A DNA stretch of 64,000 nucleotides, taken from positions 25,447-89,446 of the forward strand of contig CAZQLN010000003.1 in the NCBI GenBank assembly GCA_964594215.1. The letters run 5' to 3'. Of this stretch, positions 7,892-56,187 are shown in pieces. The DNA is from an uncultured Bdellovibrionales bacterium (lineage in GTDB: Bacteria > Patescibacteriota > Minisyncoccia > Moranbacterales > UBA1568). Each line of letters begins with the position of its first letter. Within the stretch, counting starts at the first letter, position 1. The position numbers and the translations under genes were made by a program. The notes under the pieces were generated by a model. It saw only the letters and a program-made list of their open reading frames with translations, did not search any database and was not told the DNA's origin.

Positions 7892-10800
7892 ATGAAATAT
7901 ACCCTCAATTTTAAAGAACTTGGGAAGAATGATGCTCTGGTAGCGGGAGGTAAGGGAGCATCTCTTGGAGAGATGATTCGGGCTGGTATTCCTGTGCCAG
8001 ATGGGTTTGTGATTTTAGCTGATACATTTGATCTCTTTCTCAAGGAGACGGACTTGTTACAGGAAATTGAGGCTATCTTAGACGGTGTTAATCATGAAGC
8101 TATTCATACAGTAGAAGCTGCCTCTGAGAGTATTCAAGGGCTGATACTTTCACGGCCCATACCAGAAGTGATACAGAAAGAGATTCAAGAAAAATTTGCG
8201 GATCTTGGAAGTCAATATGTTGCGGTTCGTAGTAGCGCTACAGCAGAAGATGGTATCGAGCACGCCTGGGCTGGCCAACTGGATAGTTATCTTAATACCA
8301 CAGAAAGAGACTTAATAGAAAAGGTACGTAAGTGTTGGGCTTCGCTTTTTACGCCGCGAGCTATATTTTACCGTTTTGAAAAAGGGCTTCATAGTACCAA
8401 AATCTCTGTGGCCGTAGTAGTGCAGAGTATGGTCAATAGCGAAAAGTCAGGCATTGCTTTTTCAGTTCATCCAGTCACAGAGGATTATAATCAACTGATT
8501 ATTGAAGCTGGTTTTGGTTTGGGTGAGGCGATTGTATCTGGCGCAGTGACACCCGATAGTTATGTGGTAGAAAAATCACCATGGAAGATTCTTGATATAA
8601 ATATCAGTCATCAAGGAAGGGCTCTTTATCGTATTGATGGTGGCGGGAATGAGTGGCGAGACTTGGGAGAATCCTTTGGGAGTAATAAAGTATTAAATGA
8701 GGCACAAATCCAAGAGCTTTCAGATATTATTGTGCAGATTGAAAAACACTACGGTTTTCCATGTGATATTGAATGGGCTTTTGAAGACGGAAAATTCTTT
8801 ATAGTACAAAGCCGTCCAATTACTACTCTTAGTACAAAAGGAAACATAAACTTACAGAAGATAGAAAAAATCTTTTCTCGTGATTTTACGATGATCGCTC
8901 TAGAAATGGACTATCGTATGGAATACCAACGGGCTCGTCCTTGGGCTAAAGGAGAGAATCCGTATTCTCCGTACTTAGTTTTCTGGCGGAATGATGGGAC
9001 AAATAAAATTTACTTCAATTCAAAGGGAGTGGAGTGGATTCAGAGGGAGTTAGAGAAAAGAGTTCGAGAGAATAAGGATTTCCTGAAACTGGTAGAAGAA
9101 AATGTCAGGAAGGGAATTTCCTATATTAGGCCTGTTTATGAGGCGGAGAAAGCTATTGATCGAGAAAGCTTGATTCGATTTGTGGAGGAATTTATGGCGG
9201 CTTACTTCTGGATAGAGGCAATGTGGTGGATTAAGGGGATGGCTGACGAAAATCTTAAGGATATTGATTGTGCAAATATCGTGAGACTTCGAGAAGAAAC
9301 AGAGACACTTTCCGCCGCTACCGATAGAGTTATCCGTAAATCATTAGAAAAACTTTATCCGAAACTTGGTTTACTTTCAGCCATGATTTCTTTTGATGAG
9401 CTTAAAGGCGGAAATATTCCATCTGAAGAAGTACTAAGAACCAGAGATCAAGGCTTTGTTCTTATCAACAACGAAATTATCATTGATAAAAACTTTGATG
9501 ATGTTCTTAAAGAAAATGGATTGGAGTTAGTCGAGGAATCATTTCAGATGTTAGGTGAAGAATTAGAAGGACAGTCAGCTAGTAAGGGAAGGTACACTGG
9601 AAGAGTAGTGAGAGTAATGGGACATAACGACTTTGAAAAAGTTCAGGAAGGAGATGTATTAGTTTCACCAATGACTATGGTGGACTTTCTTCCTGTTATG
9701 AAAATAGCAGGAGCTTTTGTGACTGATGAAGGCGGAGCCCTCTGTCACGCTGCTATTGTGGCGCGTGAACTTGATAAGCCTTGTATTATAGGTACCAAGG
9801 TAGCTACGCAAGTATTTAAAGATGGAGACCTTATAGAGGTGGATGCTGATAATGGTGTGGTGAGGATTTTGGAAAAAGCGGAGGAATTAGAGATAGGTAA
9901 CTATCAAAAACTTTTCCAGTGGCCAGGAGAGTTTTCACATTTTCTCTCGTCTTACTTTATGGCCATATACAACAAGCACAAGGCCATCTCTTTGCATGAT
10001 GGAAACATGTGGCAGAGTTTCTTGCCGTATACATCAAAGGAAAAAACGCTTAAGTTAGGATTAGCACTGTATTCTTCTAAACAAGAGTATGAGGAATTGA
10101 GAAAAGGTCTGACAGAAGGCTTTGTAGAGCTTACTGCCCACTTCAATCAGGTACTGAAAAAAGATACCCTTACAAAAGAAGAAGTGGGGGCCTTCTTTGA
10201 TCAGGCATTAGAACACTACAACTATTACTCTCAAACAGAATTTTTCTTTACCGATCTTGCGTACTCTGAAATGAATAACGTTTCACAAATTCAAAAGAAC
10301 TTTGAAACTTTTGATGAATTGAAATTACAGGGCAGAGAATACTTGAATAAAATTGCATTAGCTCCAGGTTGTTACCTTGATAGGCTCATTGAGAAAATTG
10401 CACAGCAACTGAGTTATGACATTAGTGCCCTTAAGTGTCACTCTATTAATGAGATTCTGGAGTTGTTTGATGGAAAGAGTGTGAAGTCGGACGAACTGGT
10501 AAACAGAAATCAATACTTCATGCATGGGAGAGGATCTCATGCGGAGGTGCTTACCGGGGATACAGCCTTGAGAAAAATCCGTGACTTTTTTGCAGAAGTG
10601 GCTAAAACAAATGAAGTGAAGGGGCAAATTGCTAACAAAGGCTACTATCAGGGGCGTGCAAGGGTTTTTCGATTTTCTCTTTCAGAAATTAATTTGATGG
10701 ATGAAGAGATTGAGAAAATGGAGAAAGGGGAAATACTCATAGCGGATACTACAGCACCAGAAATTATTCTTGCTTGCAAGAAGGCTGGCGCGATTGTCAC

Positions 10801-10951
10801 CAATCAAGGAGGGATGATGTCTCACGCGGCTATTGTCGCCCGTGAACTAGGTATTCCCTGTATAGTAGGGACAGGGCATATAACAGAAATAGTGAAGACG
10901 GGAGATTTGTTAGAAGTAGATGCTGATAATGGGGTAGTAAGAATTTTATAA
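7892..10951 (+). CDS. PEP-utilizing-enzyme family protein, rifampin-phosphotransferase/PEP-synthase-like: N-terminal PPDK_N ATP-grasp domain plus two tandem (helical domain + phosphohistidine swivel domain) modules; no PEP-utilizers_C TIM barrel
   Basis: PPDK_N-like N-terminus (…VAVRSSATAEDG…, …CDIEWAFEDGKFFIVQSRPIT…). Two swivel motifs GGALCHAAIVARELDKPCIIGT and GGMMSHAAIVARELGIPCIVGT, each preceded by roughly 270 aa of helical region. Confidence 0.75.
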   Translation: MKYTLNFKELGKNDALVAGGKGASLGEMIRAGIPVPDGFVILADTFDLFLKETDLLQEIEAILDGVNHEAIHTVEAASESIQGLILSRPIPEVIQKEIQEKFADLGSQYVAVRSSATAEDGIEHAWAGQLDSYLNTTERDLIEKVRKCWASLFTPRAIFYRFEKGLHSTKISVAVVVQSMVNSEKSGIAFSVHPVTEDYNQLIIEAGFGLGEAIVSGAVTPDSYVVEKSPWKILDINISHQGRALYRIDGGGNEWRDLGESFGSNKVLNEAQIQELSDIIVQIEKHYGFPCDIEWAFEDGKFFIVQSRPITTLSTKGNINLQKIEKIFSRDFTMIALEMDYRMEYQRARPWAKGENPYSPYLVFWRNDGTNKIYFNSKGVEWIQRELEKRVRENKDFLKLVEENVRKGISYIRPVYEAEKAIDRESLIRFVEEFMAAYFWIEAMWWIKGMADENLKDIDCANIVRLREETETLSAATDRVIRKSLEKLYPKLGLLSAMISFDELKGGNIPSEEVLRTRDQGFVLINNEIIIDKNFDDVLKENGLELVEESFQMLGEELEGQSASKGRYTGRVVRVMGHNDFEKVQEGDVLVSPMTMVDFLPVMKIAGAFVTDEGGALCHAAIVARELDKPCIIGTKVATQVFKDGDLIEVDADNGVVRILEKAEELEIGNYQKLFQWPGEFSHFLSSYFMAIYNKHKAISLHDGNMWQSFLPYTSKEKTLKLGLALYSSKQEYEELRKGLTEGFVELTAHFNQVLKKDTLTKEEVGAFFDQALEHYNYYSQTEFFFTDLAYSEMNNVSQIQKNFETFDELKLQGREYLNKIALAPGCYLDRLIEKIAQQLSYDISALKCHSINEILELFDGKSVKSDELVNRNQYFMHGRGSHAEVLTGDTALRKIRDFFAEVAKTNEVKGQIANKGYYQGRARVFRFSLSEINLMDEEIEKMEKGEILIADTTAPEIILACKKAGAIVTNQGGMMSHAAIVARELGIPCIVGTGHITEIVKTGDLLEVDADNGVVRIL

Positions 10952-10957
10952 AATACT

Positions 10958-12058
10958 ATGAGTAAGCGACCAGAAGATTACAAAAAGTTTTTTACAGCAG
11001 AATGTGAGATTACTTGTTTGCATTGTGATTTTCTCATGCGTCAGAGCCCACTCGCTGCTGCAGACTTGCTGGCTTTCAATAAGGGCTTAGAGTTTCATGT
11101 TTTCTTGCGCAAGGATAAAGAATACCGTTGTGCTGAAGAAGGGATCGAGCTTTTCTTTGATCAAGAACGGTATGAGATTTTTCTGAGAGATTTCCAGGCC
11201 TATGCAGATGAGGCTCTGAGTGTTTTTGTACCAAAGTGGAGCAAAATTCCGACAACTCTTTCCAAAGAAGAATTTATTGAAGCAGCAAATTTTCTCGGCA
11301 AATTGTGGTATTTCTATGGTTTTACAGAGTTTCCTTTTATTGATAAAGCCTATGAAAAAGCCAAAGCAGAGAGTAATGCAGAAGTCCAGAAACGACTAGA
11401 AGATTTTGGGCAGTTTAAATTCACAGGCCGTGAAGTATTGAATGCTTTTTGGTTTGAGGGTGGTCCGATACCGAACATCCTCCTCGGTGTTTCCCAGATG
11501 TTTCTTAAAGATGATGATGCCAAGTTTCTCTTTCTTGCTGAGCTTACAGCGTTGTTTGATGGATGGCGCCCAACTGAGGAATTAGTGAAAGAGCGGAGAG
11601 AATACTATGGTATGAATGTCACGGACGGCGTAGCGGAAGTATTGGGCTTTACACAAGCCAAAGAACTATACGTACAATTTACCCGAGTACCAGATGATTT
11701 GGTAATAAAAGGCGTGACTGCCAATAAAGGAAAGGTCACCGGAAGGGTAATTATCGCCCCTATGCTCAATGACCATGGAGCCATTGCTCTGCTTGATGCT
11801 AAAATGAAGCAAGGAGATATCTTGGTAGCAGAAAGTACAAGTCCAGATTTGATGTCCTTGTGTCGTAAGGCATCGGCCATAGTAGCTGATCAAGGGGGAC
11901 TGCTCTCTCATGCTGCAATTGTGTCTCGGGAACTTGGTGTACCTTGTGTGATCCAGGCGGAGGTTGCTACTCGGAGATTGAAAGAAGGGGACCTGGTAGA
12001 GGTGGATGCGGATAAAGGTTTCGTTACTATTTTAGAAAGGATAGAAGAAGGCATATAA
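10958..12058 (+). CDS. standalone (helical domain + PEP-utilizing-enzyme swivel phosphohistidine domain) protein; third module paralogous to those in the upstream gene
   Basis: C-terminal GGLLSHAAIVSRELGVPCVIQ. N-terminal region shares blocks with the upstream modules (WYFYGFTEFPFIDKAY vs YNYYSQTEFFFTDLAY; FKFTGREVLNAF vs LKLQGREYLNKI). Confidence 0.7.
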   Translation: MSKRPEDYKKFFTAECEITCLHCDFLMRQSPLAAADLLAFNKGLEFHVFLRKDKEYRCAEEGIELFFDQERYEIFLRDFQAYADEALSVFVPKWSKIPTTLSKEEFIEAANFLGKLWYFYGFTEFPFIDKAYEKAKAESNAEVQKRLEDFGQFKFTGREVLNAFWFEGGPIPNILLGVSQMFLKDDDAKFLFLAELTALFDGWRPTEELVKERREYYGMNVTDGVAEVLGFTQAKELYVQFTRVPDDLVIKGVTANKGKVTGRVIIAPMLNDHGAIALLDAKMKQGDILVAESTSPDLMSLCRKASAIVADQGGLLSHAAIVSRELGVPCVIQAEVATRRLKEGDLVEVDADKGFVTILERIEEGI

Positions 12059-12741: not shown

Positions 12742-14418
12742 ATGAGACGTGAACACAAAATCCGCTGGCAATTCGCGGCCGTGCTCCTTTTGGGGCTCGT
12801 GTCCGGGCTTATTGCATATCCAAAAGCCATTTCTTTTTTCCCAGCTGGCTACAATTGGCTCAATCAATTACAAGTAAACCGGGGACTTGATCTTGAGGGA
12901 GGTATTCACTTGGAATATGCTGCTGATACTTCGAATATAGCTAAGGATAAAGAAAAAGATGCTCTTCAAGCAGCTGAGGCAGTCATCGAGCGACGCGTCA
13001 ATGCTTTTGGTGTGGGTGAACCATTGGTTCAGCTCTCGAAAGCAGGGAGTGAAAATCGTATCATTGTAGAGCTGCCTGGTATTAAAAATATTGAAGAAGC
13101 CAAGGCGCTGATCAAAGAAACCCCATTTCTTGAATTTCGTGAGCCAGCGAGTGATGAGTTCAAGGCGCAGTTAGCCCAAGATAATGAAAAAGCTCGTGCT
13201 CAAGCGGAAACTATTTTGAATCGTGCTAAGAGCGGTGAAGATTTTTCGAAATTGGCTACCGAGTTCAGTCAGGATCCTGGTTCCAAAAATCAGGGCGGAG
13301 AATTGGATTTCGTGAAAAAAGGTGCTTTTGTTCCAGAATTTGATGAAACCATTTTCCGGGCAGATTTTCCAAAGGGTAAGATCAATGACTCTCTTATCGA
13401 AACTGACTATGGTTACCATATTATCAAGAAACTAGATGAACGAGGTGAGGGAGATGATCGAGAGGTCAAGGCGGCCCACATTCTTTTTCTCAAGAAATCT
13501 ATTGAAACCGACCCACTCTTAGCGTATCAACCAACCGGACTTTCTGGTAAAAACCTCAAAGACGCTTCGGTAACCTATCAGTCGCAAGGATTGGGGTCGC
13601 CACAGATTCAGTTACAGTTTGACGATGAAGGAACAAAATTGTTTGCAGATATTACGAAGCGTAATGTAGGTAAGCCGGTTGCTATTTTTCTTGATAATGA
13701 ACTCCTTCAGGCACCGGTTATTCAAGTAGAAATTCCAAATGGTCAGGCAGTGATCACGGGAGATTACACTATCACTGAAGCCAATGCTCAGGTAAAACGC
13801 CTCAACGAAGGAGCGTTGCCTGTACCGATCAATTTGGTTGGTCAGCAAAGTGTCGATGCCTCTTTGGGTGAAGTCGCATTGAGTCAGAGTCTTAAAGCTG
13901 GCTTTATCGGTCTGGTGGCGGTTGCTCTTTTCATGTTGCTCTTCTATCGTTTCCTCGGTCTTATTGCTGTTTTGGCACTTATCCTCTACACAGCGATGCT
14001 TTTCTCACTTTTCAAACTTTCTGTGCTCACACCATTTCCGATCACGGTGACTCTCTCTGGTATCGCTGGGTTTATTCTCTCAATTGGTATTGCGGTGGAT
14101 GCTAATGTGCTTATTTTCGAACGTACTCGCGAAGAACTCTCATACGGTAAGGGGGCTATCAAATCGATTAAGGAGGGTTTCCGTCGAGCCTGGCCAAGTA
14201 TTCGTGATGGTCATGTCTCGACTCTTCTCACCACCTTTATTCTCGTAGGTTTGGGAACGGGCTTCGTCAAAGGTTTCGCAATTATTCTCGCCTTAGGTGT
14301 GTTGCTCTCTCTCTTTACAGCGGTAGTTTTGGTGCGTACGACTACCACTTTCTTCATTGGAGAGTGGATGGAAAAACATCCATGGCTACTTGTTACTCCT
14401 AAGAAACCTATCGAATAG
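12742..14418 (+). CDS. secD: protein translocase subunit SecD carrying an inserted parvulin-like PPIase segment
   Basis: SecD hallmarks (LDLEGG, IIVELPGIKNIEEAKALIKETPFLEFRE, P1-head, six C-terminal TMs with DANVLIFER). Insert at about aa 135-250: GEDFSKLATEFSQDPGSKNQGGELDFVKKGAFVPEFDETIF…DYGYHIIKK…AAHILF. Confidence 0.85.
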   Translation: MRREHKIRWQFAAVLLLGLVSGLIAYPKAISFFPAGYNWLNQLQVNRGLDLEGGIHLEYAADTSNIAKDKEKDALQAAEAVIERRVNAFGVGEPLVQLSKAGSENRIIVELPGIKNIEEAKALIKETPFLEFREPASDEFKAQLAQDNEKARAQAETILNRAKSGEDFSKLATEFSQDPGSKNQGGELDFVKKGAFVPEFDETIFRADFPKGKINDSLIETDYGYHIIKKLDERGEGDDREVKAAHILFLKKSIETDPLLAYQPTGLSGKNLKDASVTYQSQGLGSPQIQLQFDDEGTKLFADITKRNVGKPVAIFLDNELLQAPVIQVEIPNGQAVITGDYTITEANAQVKRLNEGALPVPINLVGQQSVDASLGEVALSQSLKAGFIGLVAVALFMLLFYRFLGLIAVLALILYTAMLFSLFKLSVLTPFPITVTLSGIAGFILSIGIAVDANVLIFERTREELSYGKGAIKSIKEGFRRAWPSIRDGHVSTLLTTFILVGLGTGFVKGFAIILALGVLLSLFTAVVLVRTTTTFFIGEWMEKHPWLLVTPKKPIE

Positions 14419-14419
14419 T

Positions 14420-15325
14420 ATGGTCAAAATTATCCAGCAAAGAAAATATGCCTACGCTTTCTCGATCATCACCACGGTGTTGAGTATTGTGTTTATCATG
14501 ATATGGGGGCTTAATCTCGGTATTGATTTCAAGGGAGGAACCCTTATGGAGGTACGCTTCACTACAGAACAGGTGCCCGAAGCCACCGCCGTCCAAGAAA
14601 CACTGACACCACTCGAGCTTAAGAGCCTGACAGTCCAGCCTACCGAGAACAAGGGTATGATTCTTCGTTACCTTGCTTCAGATGATGCTGCTAATAGCAA
14701 GGTGCTGACGGCACTGCAAACTTTTGATCCAAGTGTCACTCAAGTGCGTACAGACTTTGTGGGAGGATCAGTATCCAGCCAGATCACCAAAAATGCACTG
14801 ACTGGTACGGTCATGTCTATTATCGCCATTGCCCTCTTTATTGCCTACGCTTTCCGTGGGGTCAGTGGTAAGGTGAAGTCATTTGAATATGGTATTGGGG
14901 CGGTCATTGCCTTAGCTCACGACATCATCATCACGATTGGAGTTTTTGCTTTCCTAGGTCATTTCTATGATGTCGAGGTTGGCGTGCCGTTTATCGCTGC
15001 TCTTCTCACCATCTTGGGTTACTCGGTCAACGACACTATTGTGGTCTATGATCGTGTCCGCGAAAACCTCACCCGTTCCTCACTCAAAGAAGATTTTGAA
15101 ACTATTGTCAATCGTTCGCTCAATGAAACCCTAGGTCGTTCGATCAATACTTCGCTTACAGTCATCATTACTCTTATAGCCATTGTCTTATTTGGTGGTG
15201 ACAGCATCCGCTACTTTGGTGTCGCTCTCCTTACGGGTGTTGCTTTCGGTACATACTCATCTATCTATGTATCTTCGGCTTTGCTCGTAACGCGCTATAA
15301 TATGAAGAAGAAGTTTCAGAATTAG
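14420..15325 (+). CDS. secF: protein translocase subunit SecF
   Basis: Follows secD with a 1-nt gap (ATG at 14420; the track ORF at 14357 is an upstream extension overlapping secD). Six TMs; DTIVVYDRVREN motif. Confidence 0.85.
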   Translation: MVKIIQQRKYAYAFSIITTVLSIVFIMIWGLNLGIDFKGGTLMEVRFTTEQVPEATAVQETLTPLELKSLTVQPTENKGMILRYLASDDAANSKVLTALQTFDPSVTQVRTDFVGGSVSSQITKNALTGTVMSIIAIALFIAYAFRGVSGKVKSFEYGIGAVIALAHDIIITIGVFAFLGHFYDVEVGVPFIAALLTILGYSVNDTIVVYDRVRENLTRSSLKEDFETIVNRSLNETLGRSINTSLTVIITLIAIVLFGGDSIRYFGVALLTGVAFGTYSSIYVSSALLVTRYNMKKKFQN

Positions 15326-15337
15326 ATATACAGATGT

Positions 15338-15628
15338 ATGTGGAATCCTTTTGGTAAAAATGAAGAAGATGACGCAGAGCTTGCTAAGATGGCGGAGCTT
15401 GCCGGTGGTAAGGATATTAAGGATATGGGCATGATGCAGAAGTTTGCTCTCAAGCGTCTTGCTAAGATGAGTCCAGCTGAGCGCGAGAAAATGGTGAAGA
15501 AGGCGATGACTCCAAAGAATATCGAGAAACACAAAGGAGAGATTCTTCAGTCACTGGAAGCTATGCGTAAGGCGAAGCAGATATCAGATGACCAATACAG
15601 ACTCGCTAAGAAGCGTTTTGGTTTATAA
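15338..15628 (+). CDS. hypothetical small Lys-rich protein
   Basis: 96-aa ORF tightly packed between secF and tyrS; no recognisable motif. Confidence 0.4.
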   Translation: MWNPFGKNEEDDAELAKMAELAGGKDIKDMGMMQKFALKRLAKMSPAEREKMVKKAMTPKNIEKHKGEILQSLEAMRKAKQISDDQYRLAKKRFGL

Positions 15629-29881: not shown

Positions 29882-30295
29882 ATGAGGAATGGACGAACTT
29901 GGGTGTATCTTTTGGGGTTTTTAATTTTGCTTTCCTCGGCAATCCTTTTCTATAGGATCTTTATCCTAAAGGACTATATCATTACTGCTCAGAGCCAGTG
30001 TAACCCTAACCTAGAAACCTGTTTTGTTATTGATTGTACTGAAGGTGATTTAGAGTGTGAAGGACCTACTTACTATAGGAATATTAAAGTGAGAGCAGTT
30101 GACACAACTTGTGGTTTAGAAGATCCGAGGTGTTTGTATGATTTTGCTTGTAGTGAAGAGTCAGGAAATTGCGAAATTGAGTACTGTGATGATTCGAATG
30201 TTCTTGAAGAAGAACGTTGTAGCGGTGAGGAGGATAAAGAAGTTCAGGAACTAGAAGACACCGGTGCTACAGAAGAGATTGAAACAGTATTATGA
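29882..30295 (+). CDS. membrane-anchored, Cys-rich (11 Cys) acidic extracytoplasmic protein, paralog A
   Basis: N-terminal TM; CNPNLETCFVIDCTEGDLECEGPTYY…CEIEYCDD; similar to 32766..33362. Confidence 0.6.
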   Translation: MRNGRTWVYLLGFLILLSSAILFYRIFILKDYIITAQSQCNPNLETCFVIDCTEGDLECEGPTYYRNIKVRAVDTTCGLEDPRCLYDFACSEESGNCEIEYCDDSNVLEEERCSGEEDKEVQELEDTGATEEIETVL

Positions 30296-31068
30296 ATGAA
30301 TTAGTAAATCACGATAAAAATGGCGTTTATAGCAAGTTTTTTGATGCTATAACAGAAGTAAAGGCTCGCTGGGAAAATGATGATTTAAGAAAGGCTGTCG
30401 AAGAAAGGTTGGGAGGTGATATACCAGAAGTTTTTCAACAAGGTCCAAAGGCAACTATTGTAAGGTATATTGCTAGTCCTAATGTAGAGTCCTATTACTT
30501 TCATGATTTAGCAGAGTTAAGTGGCTTGGATCCTTTATATCTTGAGTTTACACAAGATAAGTTTGTAGCTAAAAATCCCTCAAAGTATCATTTGTGTAAA
30601 CTATCCTCAGTAAGTGAGGAAAATAGTGGTGAAAAGTCCGTAAAGGTTGTAGATTTTAATAAGTATGAGGGTAAGCTCCTGAGTGAGATTGAGACATTGA
30701 ATGGAAAAAGGTTAGTTCAATTCCACCATGATCTTTTCACTAAATCTAGTGCCGGAATACAGAAGCCTTTTATATACGATTTCTCAGAATGGTTTCTAAA
30801 GCATAGGAATAAGAATGGTTTCTACTATTTCGACTATCTTGCACTTTTTGTTTGTCATGGCGTCCTTTTTGAAAATTTCTTAGGAGACAAAGAAGAGTCT
30901 AATTTCACAGATGAAATAGTTAAGCCTGCTTTTGAGGAAATAGAGAGAGTTTTCGGTGTTAAACCTCTTATTTTTCCTTTACAGCCTATCAAAGTTGAGG
31001 AACATAAAAATTGGTATGGGTATAAGGACGCTTTACTCGAAGAAATTAGAGAAGAAATAACAAAATAG
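30292..31068 (+). CDS. hypothetical cytoplasmic protein
   Basis: 258-aa ORF overlapping the upstream stop by 4 nt; no motif recognised. Confidence 0.5.
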   Translation: MNELVNHDKNGVYSKFFDAITEVKARWENDDLRKAVEERLGGDIPEVFQQGPKATIVRYIASPNVESYYFHDLAELSGLDPLYLEFTQDKFVAKNPSKYHLCKLSSVSEENSGEKSVKVVDFNKYEGKLLSEIETLNGKRLVQFHHDLFTKSSAGIQKPFIYDFSEWFLKHRNKNGFYYFDYLALFVCHGVLFENFLGDKEESNFTDEIVKPAFEEIERVFGVKPLIFPLQPIKVEEHKNWYGYKDALLEEIREEITK

Positions 31069-31070
31069 AT

Positions 31071-32762
31071 ATGGATAGTTTAATTGTAGGAAATTTAGAG
31101 TATTGCGGAGAGATTGTTCAAGATACTGTGGATTTGCTTTATTATTCACACTTTTCTACCATTATTCTCTCACTTTTTATTTCATCTTTTGTTTTTTTTA
31201 AAAATAGAAGTTCTGTTGCTGCTAAGCTTCTTTTTGTAATGTGTTTAACTTTTGCGTTGTGGACTTCTGTTGATCTTACGGTATGGCTCACGTATGATTT
31301 CTCGGCTCTTTCAGTTTTTTTATGGGCCTTTTTTGGAATTTTCTATCTTCTTATATTTGTTTTCGCATATATTTTTTTTGCTGTTTTTTCTCAAGAAAAG
31401 GACGACATTTCTCTCGGAGAAAAAACATTTCTTTCATTTTTAATTGCCCCCGTAATTCTCTTGATGCCATTTCAGTACAACGTGGTTGGATACGATGCCG
31501 TTGATTGCATTGTTACGGAGGGCACTTTCTATTCAAGTTACTACTATTTAGCAAGTCTCCTTATAATCTTTGCTGTCTTTTTAAAGGGCATACTTGTTTA
31601 TAAAAAAACTGAACAAAAGGAGAAAAAACAACAAATATTGTACTTATTAGCAGGCCTTATTCCTTTCCTTTCGTTATTCTTTTCTCTTGGATTTCTGGTC
31701 TCATATCTTGTGAATAACGGAGTAATTGGAGAATTTGGTTTTGAACAGTATGGACTTTTTGGAATGCCTATCTTTGTAGCTATTATTGGTTATATAGTTG
31801 TTCGTTTTAAAGCTTTTGATGTTAAGTTAATCGGAGCACAGGCGCTGATATTCATTCTGGTTGCTCTTATTGGGTCTCAGTTTTTTTATGCAAAATCTCA
31901 GACTGACTATACCTTAGATGCACTTACTTTGATTGCTGTACTTATTGTAGGATACTTTCTAATTCGTTCAGTCAAAAAAGAAATTGAAAGGAAAGAACAA
32001 TTAGAGAAGTTGTCATATAGCTTAGAAAAGGCTAATGATCGGCTCGAGGAGCTCGACAAGCAGAAGTCGGAGTTTATCTCGATTGCTTCACACCAGCTTC
32101 GTACACCGCTGACCGCTATTCGAGGGTATATCTCGCTGGCACTCGAGGGAGCTTATGGTAAGGTCAAGGGGACTCCGATAGAAGATATAATGAATAAGAT
32201 GTACACCATCGATCTGCGACTCTCACAGTTGGTGGAGGATCTGCTCAATGTTTCTAAGATCGAAGCTGGTAAAGTGCAATACAAATGGGAGAGTGTCACT
32301 CTCGATCCTATTGTGAGTGAACTCTATGATATGTTTGCTGTTTTGGCTGAGAAGAAAGGGCTCAAACTTCACATGATCAAACCAGAGACTCAGCTTCCAG
32401 TAATGAAGCTTGATATCAATAAAATCAAAGAGATTCTCTCTAACCTGATCGATAATGCTATCAAATACACAGAGAAGGGCAGCGTGACTATCCGAGTAGA
32501 GCAAGATGCTACAGTAGCTCGAGTAGTGATCGAGGACACTGGTATCGGTATTTCCAAAGAGGATGCTTTGCGTTTATTCGGGAAGTTTATCCGTACGGAG
32601 ACTACTCAGAAGATGGATGCTGGTGGTAGCGGGCTCGGCTTGTTTGTGGGCAAGACTTTTGTTGAGGGTCATGGCGGAAGAGTCTATGCTACGAGTGAGG
32701 GTGTAGGTAAGGGTTCGAGCTTCATCGTAGAGTTGCCTCTGATTAATCCAAATGCTTCTTAG
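31071..32762 (+). CDS. sensor histidine kinase with about 8-TM membrane-embedded sensor domain (HisKA + HATPase_c)
   Basis: H-box SHQLRTPLTAIRGY; N, G1 (DTGIGI), G2 (GGSGLGL) boxes; N-terminal 300 aa polytopic. Confidence 0.8.
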   Translation: MDSLIVGNLEYCGEIVQDTVDLLYYSHFSTIILSLFISSFVFFKNRSSVAAKLLFVMCLTFALWTSVDLTVWLTYDFSALSVFLWAFFGIFYLLIFVFAYIFFAVFSQEKDDISLGEKTFLSFLIAPVILLMPFQYNVVGYDAVDCIVTEGTFYSSYYYLASLLIIFAVFLKGILVYKKTEQKEKKQQILYLLAGLIPFLSLFFSLGFLVSYLVNNGVIGEFGFEQYGLFGMPIFVAIIGYIVVRFKAFDVKLIGAQALIFILVALIGSQFFYAKSQTDYTLDALTLIAVLIVGYFLIRSVKKEIERKEQLEKLSYSLEKANDRLEELDKQKSEFISIASHQLRTPLTAIRGYISLALEGAYGKVKGTPIEDIMNKMYTIDLRLSQLVEDLLNVSKIEAGKVQYKWESVTLDPIVSELYDMFAVLAEKKGLKLHMIKPETQLPVMKLDINKIKEILSNLIDNAIKYTEKGSVTIRVEQDATVARVVIEDTGIGISKEDALRLFGKFIRTETTQKMDAGGSGLGLFVGKTFVEGHGGRVYATSEGVGKGSSFIVELPLINPNAS

Positions 32763-45771: not shown

Positions 45772-46293
45772 ATGACTCAAAAAGAATACCAGATGGAGGA
45801 GCAAATCAAGCGATGGAATATCGTAGCCATTGGGATTTTTGTCATTCTTACGCTGCTAGCAATACGTTGTCTTGATGTTCGTGATATACAATTGCAATAC
45901 CTTTCACTAGGTGACTTCATGATACTCGCCCTGGCTATCATGCGGGTTATTCGTCTCATAGCTTATGATAATATCACCCTTTTTCTTCGCGAAGCCTTTC
46001 TTGATGTCAAAACGGTTCGTTATGCAGAAGAAGGGGAAGAATTTATCGAGCGAGTCCCTTCTGAAAATTCTCTCAAGCGTACCATATCAAAACTACTCAA
46101 CTGTCCATGGTGTCTAGGCGTCTGGGTGGCCTTGTTTGTTCTTTATTTTGCCCTTGTGTACCCAAGTCTTTGGATTATCTTTGTCTTACTCGCTCTCTCA
46201 GGAGTGGCAAGTCTGATCCAGATAGCAGCCAATCTTATGGGCTGGAATGCGGAGTACCGTAAGATAGCGACTGAAAAAACCATTAGTATGTAG
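45772..46293 (+). CDS. hypothetical membrane protein with CPWCxGxW motif (DUF1360-like, low confidence)
   Basis: NCPWCLGVWVALFVLYF… within TM helices. Confidence 0.5.
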   Translation: MTQKEYQMEEQIKRWNIVAIGIFVILTLLAIRCLDVRDIQLQYLSLGDFMILALAIMRVIRLIAYDNITLFLREAFLDVKTVRYAEEGEEFIERVPSENSLKRTISKLLNCPWCLGVWVALFVLYFALVYPSLWIIFVLLALSGVASLIQIAANLMGWNAEYRKIATEKTISM

Positions 46294-46299
46294 TAAGAT

Positions 46300-47466
46300 A
46301 TGCCAAGTTTTGAACGACCAAGGCTGACTGAAGTCATACCTATAAATGAAGAGGGTATCAGTAAATTAAGAGATACCTTTGAAAACTATTTTTCTCAAAT
46401 AAACAGTGAGACCGGAGTAAGCGTATTTTTGGAGGCTGTAAAAGAAGTTAACTCAATTGAGATAAGTGCTAAGAATCAAGAGTACGTTAAAGGATGGCTT
46501 GCTCAAATCCTTGAGAAGTCTTACTATTTAGCATTTATAGCTGGTATATCTACAGAAGTCTTTTCTAAGGAACTTCAAACAGGTTTAACTTTAGTGCCAA
46601 TAATTCCTGACTATCTGAATGAAAGTCACGAAAGAGAGCTCAAAAGAGAGCCTGCTTTTATGGAGAGTATAGAGGGCACCCTAGAAAGATTTTCATATAT
46701 TGAAAAGTTGCCACAGATATTTAGAAAAAAAGTGCAAGCTATAATAATAGGAGGATCAATGAGTTACGGACCATTTTTTAATATTCGAAAGAATTTAGAC
46801 AAAACAGGAAGTTCAGATATTGATGCTATCTTTGTGATGAAAGAAGATTTTTTGGATGACGATAACTGGGAATTATTTAACACTTCTTCTCAATTCTTTG
46901 AAGAAGATAAAATCGAATTTCAAAAAAGAAAAAAAGATTTTAAAACACTCTACGTGCAAAATCAGGCAGATGTATTTAGTCAACGCTTCAATGTTCCGGG
47001 ACGTGATTTTAATATGAGCGTACATTTCTTTACTCTTGAGAATCTTGAGAAGATGTGCAATTCTGAACTCAAGGATGATTTAAAGTTGAATCTTGATAGG
47101 GTTAAAATTTTAAGAGATTTTAAGGCTAGAAAATTTGAACACAAAGATTGCAATCAGTTAAACTTTTTTGGAGAAATATTTTCATACCCCATTCCAGAAC
47201 AGAAGCCAGTTGATGGTGGGTACATTGCAAATTTACCCAGTTACATGATTAGGGGAGGTCATCTGTATCCAGGAATCTATCAGAATATAATATCACCAGA
47301 ATTTTCAGTCTTTTGTGATAATGGAGGAGAGGTGGGAGATTTGGTAAAGGTCTTTCAACAAAATATTCAAAATAGACTTGATGATGAAAATAATGTAAAA
47401 GAGGGAGCTGGTTCTATAAAGGAATCTCACTTCAGAAACCATTTTTTTGCTTTAGGAAGATACTAA
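46300..47466 (+). CDS. pol-beta-superfamily nucleotidyltransferase-fold protein of unknown specificity
   Basis: IIGGSMSYGPFFNIRKNLDKTGSSDIDAIFV matches hG[GS]-x(n)-DhDh; third acidic cluster FLDDDNWE; about 140-aa N-terminal extension. Confidence 0.5.
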   Translation: MPSFERPRLTEVIPINEEGISKLRDTFENYFSQINSETGVSVFLEAVKEVNSIEISAKNQEYVKGWLAQILEKSYYLAFIAGISTEVFSKELQTGLTLVPIIPDYLNESHERELKREPAFMESIEGTLERFSYIEKLPQIFRKKVQAIIIGGSMSYGPFFNIRKNLDKTGSSDIDAIFVMKEDFLDDDNWELFNTSSQFFEEDKIEFQKRKKDFKTLYVQNQADVFSQRFNVPGRDFNMSVHFFTLENLEKMCNSELKDDLKLNLDRVKILRDFKARKFEHKDCNQLNFFGEIFSYPIPEQKPVDGGYIANLPSYMIRGGHLYPGIYQNIISPEFSVFCDNGGEVGDLVKVFQQNIQNRLDDENNVKEGAGSIKESHFRNHFFALGRY

Positions 47467-47469
47467 AAA

Positions 47470-48027
47470 TTACATCTTTTCAAATACATGGACTGCTTGA
47501 GCCATGCTGCGGACATCGTGGAGAGCGTTGTGTACGTGTCCGTACATCTCTAGTCCAGCTGCCTGATAGAGTGTTCCGCTAGAGTAGGCATCAGCATCAA
47601 TTTTCCATCCAGAAAGTAGGGGCTTGACTTTAATAAAGGGTAAATCTTCAAAAGGATAGGCGATCCCAAAGTAAGAACAGTTCTGTTGTAATACTCCCCA
47701 ATCAGCATTGAATGTCCAGATGGGATAGTTTTTGACAAAGTCTACAAGACTTTTTAGCGCTGTTGGAAAATCAATCGCATTAGTAGTTAGTTGAGAATCA
47801 GTAATATTTGTAAGTTCAACGAAAAAAGGTGGAAGTTTTTTTTCAAAAGCTGGCCATGTCAACACGTCAAAACTAGTCACTTCTTTTCCAGTATGATTAT
47901 CGAACAAAATAGCAGAAATTTGGACTATTTGACGCTTTTCATTTTCATCGGGACGACCCTTTTCGGGAGTCATTTCGGGATAGCAGTATTCTAGGTCTAA
48001 GTACACTCGATAGTCATTTTCTTTCAT
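47470..48027 (-). CDS. DEDDh-family 3'-5' exonuclease (DnaQ/oligoribonuclease/KapD-like)
   Basis: Exo I VYLDLEY (DxE), Exo II FNADWG, Exo III HNALHDVRSMA (H-x4-D); 185 aa. Confidence 0.65.
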   Translation of the reverse strand: MKENDYRVYLDLEYCYPEMTPEKGRPDENEKRQIVQISAILFDNHTGKEVTSFDVLTWPAFEKKLPPFFVELTNITDSQLTTNAIDFPTALKSLVDFVKNYPIWTFNADWGVLQQNCSYFGIAYPFEDLPFIKVKPLLSGWKIDADAYSSGTLYQAAGLEMYGHVHNALHDVRSMAQAVHVFEKM

Positions 48028-53858: not shown

Positions 53859-54725
53859 ATGAAGTATACCTTCTCAACCGCTCTTGTGGCGGTGTCGCTC
53901 GCTTTTGCTTCCCAGGCCTCGGCCAAGGAAGTGAAGCCGGCAGAGATGGAGGTTCGCGGCCTTCACGCCGTCGAAGCTCCCTGGCAACCAGAGAGTCTGT
54001 CGCTTGACACGCGTCAAGTGCAGGCACTCCAGGTAATTACTATCCCACTTTCGGAGGCAACAAAGAAAGAATGGGCAAAAGTTAACCGTGATAAACGTGG
54101 TATTCGAATGATCGTCGATGGAGAAGATGGCAAGCCTCGGCTTGTTGGACGACCCGTCATCAAGGCGACGTTTCGCGTATTGCTTATGAAGGATGGTGAC
54201 ATTCTTCCTATGAGCGAAGCCGAAATGATTACCACTGGCGGTGAGGCCATCAATATCCTCTTGCCGCCTGACGTTGATTTCCGTGGAACGACAGCCTTTG
54301 TGTTGGCGGATCGCGGACGTCATGCACTTACTCTTGCGGGTGAGATTATCGATCTCGACAAGGGAAAGAAACGACTTATTACGTCCAAGTTGCCCGATCA
54401 AGTTGCCACTTCGGTGGTGGAAGACACGGCTTTGAGTGTACGGGGTGAGCCTTCTGGGTTGTACCTCGATATGCTGGAAGCCACATTTAGCGAACACGCT
54501 GTTCTCAACAACAGTCTTCGCTATTCCGGTCTTCCCGGCACTTTTCTTTCCAAGGATATGACCCGTTACCCTTCGGTGGCGGCTCTCTATACGAGGGAAG
54601 ACACAGTCGGCGATCGCTTGATTACCTGCGGCAATGGAACACTGGATCCGTCCATGTTCACTGGTATTGGAGCCCTTGTTAAAGTGGGCTCCAACCTCAT
54701 CGTCGCACTCAAGAAACGTTGCTAG
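53859..54725 (+). CDS. secreted hypothetical protein, GC-rich (about 52-55%)
   Basis: Signal peptide MKYTFSTALVAVSLAFASQASA; GGAG 8 nt upstream; composition unlike its flanks. Confidence 0.6.
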   Translation: MKYTFSTALVAVSLAFASQASAKEVKPAEMEVRGLHAVEAPWQPESLSLDTRQVQALQVITIPLSEATKKEWAKVNRDKRGIRMIVDGEDGKPRLVGRPVIKATFRVLLMKDGDILPMSEAEMITTGGEAINILLPPDVDFRGTTAFVLADRGRHALTLAGEIIDLDKGKKRLITSKLPDQVATSVVEDTALSVRGEPSGLYLDMLEATFSEHAVLNNSLRYSGLPGTFLSKDMTRYPSVAALYTREDTVGDRLITCGNGTLDPSMFTGIGALVKVGSNLIVALKKRC

Positions 54726-54828
54726 GAGAAATTCGATGACCTGGCAGCACGGCAACCCTATCGATCAATTCTGGTCGAGACGGTTGCTCTGTGCGCCGTC
54801 TCGACTTCCATCAAGGAGTGTAAGTATC

Positions 54829-56187
54829 ATGAAACGTTTTCTCCTGACCCTTGGGGTCGCCCTCTCGGTGTCGATGACTGGATTCATTTCCAGTTCGGCA
54901 TCGGCGGCGACCACTCGAAATGCCGAAGGGTATGTCGAGTGGAGCCGGGTGGGCGCCGCTACCATGAACTTGTTTCAGGGTGGTGGTCCACGCCTTGATC
55001 TGGCACGCGTTTATGCGATGCGCCAGATGGGTGTGAGCGAACCTGAAATTGCTCAAGTCCTCCTGGACTTTCATGCAAAAAACTTCGAGGAAGGCGTTAT
55101 CCGCAAGGGTGACAAGTTCAAGACGATGTCTTTTGCTAACAAGAAAGAGGTCAAGGTGATGCATAACGTCATCTTGACTGCAGACGGCGAATACAGGGTT
55201 TGGCGGATGCGCACCAAAAGCGGACTGACTATCACGTTCGTTGAGAAGTGTGCCAATGTCGGCATCGAGGAAACTCCGCCGGCACCGCCTGCCAAAGAAA
55301 ACCCTCCGCCGGTAGAGGAAACTCCGCCGGCACCTCCGCCTCCCTTTGTTCCGCCGACGACGGTCGAAGAAGGCCAGCGTCTCTGCAATAAGCTTCGGGT
55401 CAACGGTGTTCTCGGTTTCGAATGGGAACCGCTCATCCATGGCTCGGACTCGCGTAGCTTGTATGCTGCTGCGGGTATCTATTGCATGCGTCTGACCAAG
55501 TACGGTCAAATCGGTTTCGGTCTCGGTGGCCAAGCTGCCTTCTACGGTGGCAAGGTCAAACATGTTGGTCGTTTCCAGGGCCATCTCTATGGCGCAGGAC
55601 CGGCAGTCATGATCGTGAACGACAAAGGTCTCGACTACGAAGGCAAGTTGATGATCATGGACTACACATCAAGCTACCGCCAAGGTGGCTACCGTTCCCA
55701 TGAGCATCGCACGGTGATTGGGATGAGCCTGGCTCATAACGACTACCGTGGCCGGATTGACGGCACTGGCAAGCCAGAAACGCAGTACTTCGCCTTGTGC
55801 GGAGTGCCGATTGGTGGTCATACCACGGAAACGTGGAATGGTCAGAAAATCGGCAACGGCTCGAAGCTCGGGCTTGTCTGCAACGCTGGCCTTCGGAAGT
55901 ATCTGACGGAGGGCAAGAAGTGGAATCCGTATATTCAAGGCGGACTCCTGGGTGAAGCTCGCAAGGGTGGAGCCGACTTCTTGTCTGGCAGTCTGCGTCT
56001 TGGTGCTTCGAATAAGCATCGGACGATCGGTTGTGGAGCGGGTATCGACGTGAACCTGCTTAAGGGCGGTATCCATCCTGGCCTCGGCTGTTGGGTGGAT
56101 GTTGCTGGCATGGTACGCCACAAGCGTACGGCCTCACGGGCGGCAGCTATTGCAGCTGACCAGCTTCCGGCAACCAAGAACGAATAA
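54829..56187 (+). CDS. secreted hypothetical protein with proline-rich linker (EETPPAPPAKENPPPVEETPPAPPPPFVPP), GC-rich
   Basis: AAGGAG then ATG 54829; signal peptide MKRFLLTLGVALSVSMTGFISSSASA. The track ORF from 54634 is an upstream extension. Confidence 0.6.
   Translation: MKRFLLTLGVALSVSMTGFISSSASAATTRNAEGYVEWSRVGAATMNLFQGGGPRLDLARVYAMRQMGVSEPEIAQVLLDFHAKNFEEGVIRKGDKFKTMSFANKKEVKVMHNVILTADGEYRVWRMRTKSGLTITFVEKCANVGIEETPPAPPAKENPPPVEETPPAPPPPFVPPTTVEEGQRLCNKLRVNGVLGFEWEPLIHGSDSRSLYAAAGIYCMRLTKYGQIGFGLGGQAAFYGGKVKHVGRFQGHLYGAGPAVMIVNDKGLDYEGKLMIMDYTSSYRQGGYRSHEHRTVIGMSLAHNDYRGRIDGTGKPETQYFALCGVPIGGHTTETWNGQKIGNGSKLGLVCNAGLRKYLTEGKKWNPYIQGGLLGEARKGGADFLSGSLRLGASNKHRTIGCGAGIDVNLLKGGIHPGLGCWVDVAGMVRHKRTASRAAAIAADQLPATKNE

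Follow-up and report, generated by a model that had tools for sequence, protein, structure and literature searches.

A SecD subunit of Patescibacteria with an inserted and apparently circularly permuted parvulin domain in its P1 region

In work attributed to Tsukazaki in 2011 and Furukawa in 2017, SecDF is reported to draw on the proton-motive force for a swing of the P1 head by which substrates are pulled from SecYEG. The closest described foldases belong to the parvulins, in which the beta1 strand is normally N-terminal and bears the first catalytic histidine ('xxxHILv'). PrsA of B. subtilis and other Firmicutes, which are monoderm, is an extracytoplasmic, membrane-tethered parvulin of the PpiC type whose presumed job is the folding of secreted proteins leaving SecYEG. 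The parvulin chaperones PpiD-YfgM and SurA of E. coli and Vibrio work where the Sec machinery faces the periplasm. A contact between PpiD and the periplasmic domain of SecD has been described (PMC9643414), and the holo-translocon is bound by SurA, whose parvulin domains AlphaFold puts on the P1 head (PMC9987972). Here, we describe a SecD that carries a parvulin-type peptidyl-prolyl isomerase (PPIase) domain within its own P1 region. It is encoded on a 64,000-nucleotide stretch, referred to as the window (contig CAZQLN010000003.1, positions 25,447 to 89,446), from a bacterium of the Candidate Phyla Radiation (CPR, Patescibacteria). The secD gene and the parts of its product are as follows (aa, residue numbers; TM, transmembrane; AF2, AlphaFold2 model).

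12742..14418, + strand: secD coding sequence from the list of open reading frames (ORFs), 558 aa, stop codon TAG at 14416-14418
12766..12816, + strand: N-terminal TM helix, aa ~9-25, with the hydrophobic stretch FAAVLLLGLVSGLIAY; AF2 helix 3-25
12967..13146, + strand: N-terminal segment of the P1 base (SecD_1st, aa 76-135), ending in ...ETPFLEFRE; PF21760, E 1.6e-17
13147..13497, + strand: inserted domain, read as a circularly permuted parvulin (PpiC-type PPIase), aa 136-252, ~117 aa
13153..13230, + strand: long first helix of the insert, aa 138-163 (AF2 helix 138-163; the Pfam match begins at aa 144/145)
13273..13275, + strand: Asp178 (SQD178PGS), equivalent of Pin1 Cys113 and Par14 Asp74 in the parvulin catalytic tetrad
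13402..13404, + strand: Thr221 (Thr or Ser in homologues), equivalent of Pin1 Thr152
13411..13443, + strand: strand beta4 (aa 224-234, GYH226IIKKLDER) with the second catalytic histidine, His226; AF2 strand 224-234
13462..13491, + strand: strand beta1' (aa 241-250, EVKAAH246ILFL) with the first catalytic histidine, His246; AF2 strand 241-250
13507..13824, + strand: P1 head subdomain, aa 256-361; PF22599 (SecDF_P1_head), E 2.7e-27
13843..14376, + strand: C-terminal SecD/SecF membrane domain, aa ~368-545; PF02355 and PF03176 matches, AF2 helices

The host protein is a SecD by every feature considered. The SecD equivalog-domain profile TIGR01129 scored 361.3 bits against a cut-off of 244.4 over aa 48-533, and phmmer matched the protein to T. 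thermophilus SecDF (3aqp) with an E-value of 2e-66. Using Foldseek, the full-length AF2 model was matched to the SecDF structures 5xan, 5yhf and 3aqp with E-values of 1e-21 to 1e-24; its PDB matches were mostly SecDF and resistance-nodulation-division (RND) pumps and were uninformative on the insert. With canonical SecD and SecDF (T. thermophilus 3aqp/5xan, E. coli) the protein shares Sec_GG, the P1 base and head, an adjacent secF and the membrane domain, for which PF02355, a profile that the first-pass annotation of this DNA had suggested searching, gave a match. It also shares the membrane-embedded aspartate: Asp453 (GIAVD453ANVL) aligns with gaavdgnvl of 3aqp (TM4, motif AVDGNVL) and is invariant in 59 sequences. 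We take this conserved residue to belong to the proton pathway. By analogy with solved SecDF structures, the N-terminal TM helix would set the P1 domain outside the cytoplasm. In place of 'periplasm-facing' in the first-pass annotation, 'extracytoplasmic' is the safer word, as CPR bacteria are generally held to lack an outer membrane. Public pipelines label such proteins 'protein translocase subunit SecD', and their precomputed Pfam strings already include a rotamase domain.

The insert was clearly recognized as a parvulin, with a match that chance could not produce. PF13616 (Rotamase_3) matched aa 145-233 with an E-value of 2.2e-24 and 86.7 bits (cut-off 22.5), PF00639 (Rotamase) with 7e-20 and 72.2 bits (cut-off 21.7), and the insert taken alone scored 91.2 and 75.9 bits, respectively. 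The best sequence matches of the insert in the PDB were SurA parvulins. The first-pass annotation had proposed a parvulin/PpiC-like insert between the P1 base and the P1 head at 13144-13491, and would have given the idea up if no rotamase profile had matched or if the segment had aligned to ordinary P1 sequence. Its coordinates are accurate (aa 135-250) and the motifs it quoted are all present (PFLEFRE at 128, GYHII at 224, REVKAAHILF at 240); neither objection arose, since the rotamase match lies above the cut-off and alignment to T. thermophilus SecDF leaves a net insert of about 100 aa that is not ordinary P1 sequence. In this alignment, aa 43-164 correspond to residues 31-145 and aa 264-540 to residues 157-427 of 3aqp. 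The insert thus falls between the PF21760 segment and the PF22599 head, in the first base-to-head connection. The spacing from ...LEFR to the head is ~130 aa here compared with ~40 in T. thermophilus SecDF, and among cluster representatives the gap between the base and head matches has a median of 26 aa in SecDs without a parvulin compared with 126-160 aa in this group.

The position of the insert, exactly on the first hinge connection, lends something to an explanation in which its role is mainly mechanical or regulatory, so that it tunes or gates the swing of the P1 head from the F-form to the I-form, or docks cell-wall, S-layer or host-attachment machinery. The site tolerates varied inserts: E. 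coli SecD differs from the protein described here in having its own segment of ~150 extra residues at the same place (aa 250 aligned to residue 311 of 5mg3_D), relatives carry one- to three-module versions, and some have long low-complexity loops between beta4 and beta1'. This explanation leaves the conservation of the catalytic residues described below unaccounted for, and we regard it as very improbable as the main role, though the two roles are not exclusive.

Both the predicted fold and the active-site residues are those of a parvulin. The insert is predicted to form a four-stranded antiparallel sheet with four helices packed against it, and all four residues of the catalytic tetrad are found (H246, D178, H226, T221). 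We take D178, H226, H246 and T221 to be the counterparts of Pin1 C113, H157, H59 and T152 (Par14 D74, H123, H42 and T118), which form a hydrogen-bond network. The order of elements is a different matter. In place of the canonical beta1-alpha1-alpha2-alpha3-beta2-alpha4-beta3-beta4, the insert runs alpha1-alpha2-alpha3-beta2-alpha4-beta3-beta4-beta1' and can thus be classed as a circular permutant of the parvulin family. The EVKAAH246ILF strand comes after beta4 (GYH226IIKK), past a ten-residue turn rich in Gly and Asp, so that the HIL-type motif lies C-terminal to GYHII, as the first-pass annotation had observed (beta1' at aa 241-250, beta4 at aa 224-234).

The PF13616 match covers profile positions 30-115 of 116 only and leaves out the N-terminal part with beta1. 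Taken by itself, the lack of positions 1-29 would suit a functionless, decaying rotamase remnant without beta1, with the VKAAHILF strand being ordinary SecD hinge. When the beta1' strand was moved to the N-terminus of the insert, however, the match reached profile position 15 and gained 4-5 bits, and in a doubled insert one PF13616 match crossed the junction, running from profile position 9 to 115. To this can be added a test with a hidden Markov model (HMM) built from 40 canonical-order parvulin modules of related two-module SecD(F) proteins, against which 78 single-module inserts were scored in rearranged form, the strand being picked out by a motif regular expression. Placing the strand at the N-terminus raised the score by a mean of 7.0 bits (positive for 78/78; +9.8 for the window protein), compared with +0.14 bits for the shuffled strand, +0.02 for the reversed strand and +0.38 for the strand in its natural position.

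Structure prediction gave a consistent picture. The AF2 elements of the insert are helices 138-163, 168-175 and 179-183, strand 187-192, helix 198-204 and strands 224-234 and 241-250, which we read as alpha1-3, beta2, alpha4, (beta3) and beta4, followed by a hairpin into beta1'. The N-terminal half of helix 138-163 is probably a stalk leaving the P1 base; its C-terminal half is parvulin alpha1. In the full-length model, the insert has predicted local distance difference test (pLDDT) values of 80-90, with 89 for the beta1' block; a model of aa 130-264 alone reached a mean pLDDT of 93.7 and a predicted template modelling (pTM) score of 0.85, with 98 for beta1', the highest of the domain. Both models thus show beta1' as the hairpin partner of beta4. 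As DSSP marks a strand only for hydrogen-bonded residues, beta1' is paired in the model at least with beta4, and pairing with beta2 is also expected. H226 and H246 are placed symmetrically about the beta4-beta1' hairpin and, judging from the model, would sit next to each other on paired strands, as the two histidines do in canonical parvulins.

At the level of sequence and model, a relocated beta1, and with it circular permutation, is therefore supported. The first-pass annotation had offered 'circularly permuted or partial'; the first half of this holds, given a strand homologous to beta1, its modelled hairpin with beta4 and a His246 kept in 79 of 80 genomes, and the second half does not. A remnant in decay is accordingly hard to believe in, and we grant it next to no weight: the relocated strand scores as beta1 and has the top model confidence of the domain, its histidine is almost invariant, canonical SecDs have only ~26 aa and no such strand motif at this site, and loss of the central strand would be expected to keep a parvulin from folding. 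The partial-rotamase reading was rejected on the grounds of strand scoring, model confidence, the conserved histidine and the short linker of canonical SecDs. In the permuted arrangement, the domain would begin at helix alpha1 and would end with the central beta1 and its catalytic histidine, folded onto beta4. This would bring the entry and exit points of the insert next to each other at the position of the canonical beta1-alpha1 loop, as an inserted domain needs, and could allow the domain to bud from the hinge without disturbing P1.

The architecture is widespread. Among the 120 closest database homologues (67-100% identity to the window SecD), 120/120 show the order SecD_1st-Rotamase-P1_head, and those with names belong to Candidatus Moranbacteria/Moraniibacteriota or the 'Patescibacteria group'. 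At least 574 matching loci were found in a collection with one genome per species. This survey of homologues, called for by the first-pass annotation, also disposes of the idea that a prsA-like gene was joined to secD chimerically through an assembly or gene-calling artefact. Nothing beyond the unusual architecture speaks for such an artefact; the 558-aa SecD is encoded by a single uninterrupted ORF (window 12742-14418, +), an identical protein occurs on independent contigs from several sources (P0001), and the same architecture is seen in hundreds of independent metagenome-assembled genomes (MAGs). We consider this possibility refuted by recurrence and give it no credence at all.

Conservation was counted in the best 80 of the at least 574 loci, from species-level genomes, with the whole P1 region covered and 45-88% identity. 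Their sources are Moranbacteria, the Parcubacteria group, Falkow-, Kerfeld-, Buchanan-, Komeili- and Kuenenbacteria and Elulimicrobium, together with some MAGs whose titles are evidently unreliable. Besides Moranbacteria and other Parcubacteria, the genomes with the insert include ABY1-type Patescibacteria. D178 and H246 are each kept in 79/80 genomes and H226 and G224 in 80/80, and position 221 is T in 41 and S in 39 (T/S in 80/80); the full tetrad is intact in 78/80. The hydrophobic residues of the proline pocket (L188, F196, F200) are also conserved. In Moranbacteria-type sequences D178 is invariant (59/59), as are all tetrad positions in alignment A1. Among the genome-reduced CPR bacteria, the insert appears to be a trait of the whole lineage. 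Many MAGs with a Patescibacteria-type SecD (L001, L004, L006, L033, L039 and others; up to 88% identity to the window SecD) bear off-lineage titles from SPIRE/binchicken, namely 'uncultured Bdellovibrionales', 'uncultured Gammaproteobacteria' and, in one case, 'Candidatus Bathyarchaeia archaeon'. These titles are probably placeholders or wrong labels. The genomes sit among clear Patescibacteria at the same identity, and their titles are thus no evidence for an occurrence outside the CPR.

With its full tetrad under strong purifying selection across Patescibacteria, the insert is most likely an active PPIase/foldase or, failing that, a module that binds substrates through its proline pocket. 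On these sequences and models we think it likely, with fairly good confidence, that this SecD bears a complete, permuted parvulin in P1 that would act in one of these ways at the translocon. Several points count against this. How the domains are placed relative to one another is uncertain in the full-length model (pTM 0.52). Because its strand was chosen by motif, the HMM test is partly circular, and the shuffled control excludes only composition effects; for the most part, the test puts a number on a motif whose conservation is plain to the eye. The distant relatives P0126 and P0138 have only the beta1' histidine changed (H to Q), so activity is not universal. Further, intact-looking parvulin domains can be catalytically inactive, as in E. 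coli PpiD and SurA P1, and the in vivo roles of PrsA and SurA do not strictly need PPIase activity.

Some of these points suit a different explanation, in which the insert would serve, without catalysis, as a chaperone or substrate-binding module of the PpiD parvulin or SurA P1 type that holds chains or extends the surface of the P1 head. Inactive parvulins are common in translocon and envelope chaperones (PpiD, SurA P1), the degenerate first module of two-module relatives is still retained although it has no Asp or His, and some single-module relatives are without one or both histidines; among distant cluster representatives, both are lost in P0125 and P0164. Set against this, a full tetrad in 78/80 genomes at such divergence would be difficult to understand if the active site were not needed, and the proline-pocket residues L188, F196 and F200 are conserved too. 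The parvulin of PpiD is inactive, whereas the insert of the window SecD keeps its tetrad. A purely non-catalytic module is therefore unlikely in our judgement, and we prefer an active or proline-binding parvulin.

In the mechanism we propose for such a parvulin, SecD would hold it beside the SecYEG exit, where the tethered domain could catch emerging unfolded secretory proteins as they are drawn out by the proton-driven P1 head. It would thereby do in cis the work that PrsA does in trans in monoderms and PpiD or SurA in diderms. The first-pass annotation had suggested the role of a foldase like PrsA or PpiD that works in cis at the translocon, and this fits the conserved tetrad and the published evidence that PpiD and SurA contact SecD in its periplasmic domain (PMC9643414, PMC9987972). 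The enzymatic activity, the substrates, the coupling to the P1 head and the replacement of free-standing foldases are what we infer from these comparisons. A bolder version, which we hold only tentatively and find rather doubtful, is that an active permuted parvulin in the proton-driven SecDF arm replaces free extracytoplasmic foldases, with each swing of the P1 head presenting the emerging chain directly to it, and that the module variants preserve steps of permutation by duplication or of nested insertion. If true, translocation would be mechanically coupled to folding catalysis, and an undescribed pathway of natural permutation of the parvulin fold would be at hand.

A search of cluster representatives showed that the parvulins of SecD and SecDF relatives at this site come in versions of one, two and apparently three modules. 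SecDF forms with two modules are those of Peregrinibacteria and Abawacabacteria, also members of the CPR, and inserts of two or more modules occur in other Patescibacteria too. In P0137, P0145 and P0154, the site is the same as in the window SecD (...LEF(K/R)E to ...TGL(S/T)G), with alpha1 directly after the base and a beta strand before the head. Unlike in the window SecD, the first module is degenerate, with Asp and His lost, the second is a full-length canonical parvulin (Pfam positions 1-97 of 97) with its own ASHILI strand, and the last strand before the head usually has no histidine. The representatives with two or three parvulin-like modules at the P1 hinge site fall in the range P0129-P0255; P0214 and P0218 seem to have hydrophobic, TM-like stretches within the P1 head region. 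In the single-module relatives P0123, P0148 and P0157, acidic or low-complexity loops of 40-60 aa lie in the beta4-beta1' hairpin, which marks this hairpin as a permissive insertion point.

The beta4-linker-beta1' segment closely resembles the junction between the P1 and P2 parvulins of SurA (...EVHARHILL), and HMMER aligns the insert across that junction. Given this SurA-like junction and the two-module relatives, the permutation arose most plausibly from a tandem parvulin array of which the frame from alpha1 to beta4 plus the next beta1 was kept, as the sequences suggest. The two-module forms fit permutation by duplication and truncation. Alternatively, a permuted parvulin may house a canonical one within its beta4-beta1' hairpin, or the modules may be serially permuted.

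The likeness to PrsA extends to the catalytic residues, which are the same, and into the linker after beta4 (YGYHIIKKTEERGKYDD against YGYHIIKKLDERGEGDD). PrsA differs in being a separate, dimerising lipoprotein with a canonical-order parvulin set within an N/C (NC) chaperone domain; the window SecD has no NC domain, its parvulin is permuted and SecD itself is the anchor. The insert has neither a lipobox or N-terminal TM anchor of its own nor a free location, being internal to SecD and held by its TM segments. PpiD and SurA differ in acting in trans and in having large chaperone domains, and SurA serves the traffic of proteins to the outer membrane, a task that presumably does not exist in CPR bacteria. 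Pfam detected no chaperone domain of the SurA_N or PrsA type in the window SecD, and the NCBIfam models for PrsA, SurA and PpiD matched the parvulin part only, with 33-58 bits against cut-offs of 283-493 (PrsA models: 44-56 bits against 343-361). The protein may work like PrsA, SurA or PpiD but is no member of those families, because it lacks the NC domain and scores far below the cut-offs of their models. The fusion can instead be seen as a covalent, Rosetta-stone-type version of the PpiD-SecD or SurA-SecDF pairing. The searchable full-text literature, which leaves most subscription journals uncovered, yielded no account of a fusion between SecD and a parvulin, nor of any parvulin with a circular permutation. 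As far as that literature shows, SecD and parvulin are known parts, their fusion is undescribed and the topology is new.

The gene next to secD is its partner.

14420..15325, + strand: secF, with its ATG at 14420, one base past the secD stop codon; PF02355 with E 6e-53, and Sec_GG

The other neighbours are housekeeping genes, the order being a PPDK_N/phosphoenolpyruvate (PEP)-utiliser protein, a low-molecular-weight phosphatase on the minus strand, secD, secF, tyrS, pheS and pheT. A second parvulin was not found within the 64-kb window. The PPDK_N protein (7892-12058, +; 1019 aa) combines a PPDK_N ATP-grasp domain with two PEP-utiliser 'swivel' His domains, and the 366-aa protein encoded next has a third PEP-utiliser mobile domain as its sole Pfam domain. 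With no PEP/pyruvate-binding TIM-barrel domain detected by Pfam for these two proteins, this multi-swivel arrangement is unusual for a PEP synthase- or phosphotransferase-like enzyme. Between secF and tyrS, a 96-aa ORF rich in Lys and Glu (15338-15628, +) matched no significant family. It overlaps the longest tyrS frame (15588-) by ~40 nt, so the true tyrS start may lie further downstream.

Farther away, two proteins whose N-termini resemble signal peptides are encoded in a GC-rich island at 53859-56187 (+; 53.8% G+C compared with ~43% elsewhere). Neither has a Pfam match, and the second contains the Pro-rich linker PPAPPAKENPPPVEETPPAPPPPFVPP. An rRNA operon was suspected in this GC-rich region at 54-56 kb, and Rfam found none; the island may have been acquired horizontally. 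Low-GC stretches lie at 30001-32000 (34%) and 46001-48000 (37%), where the ORFs 30292-31068 and 46300-47466 gave no Pfam matches and 31071-32762 encodes a histidine kinase.

In E. coli, the link between parvulins and SecD has so far been made by cross-linking, low-resolution electron microscopy and AlphaFold models of PpiD-SecD and SurA-SecDF. The fusion described here adds Rosetta-stone evidence that parvulin foldases and the P1 domain of SecD work together. Going by the literature that can be searched, the insert would be the first parvulin known to be circularly permuted. Its relatives have the look of evolutionary intermediates and provide a useful case of how a domain is reshaped for insertion into a host protein. 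Further, a single polypeptide of this kind offers a system in which to ask whether prolyl isomerisation couples to the SecDF power stroke. For CPR bacteria, the finding points to economy in envelope proteostasis, and the insert could serve as a marker.

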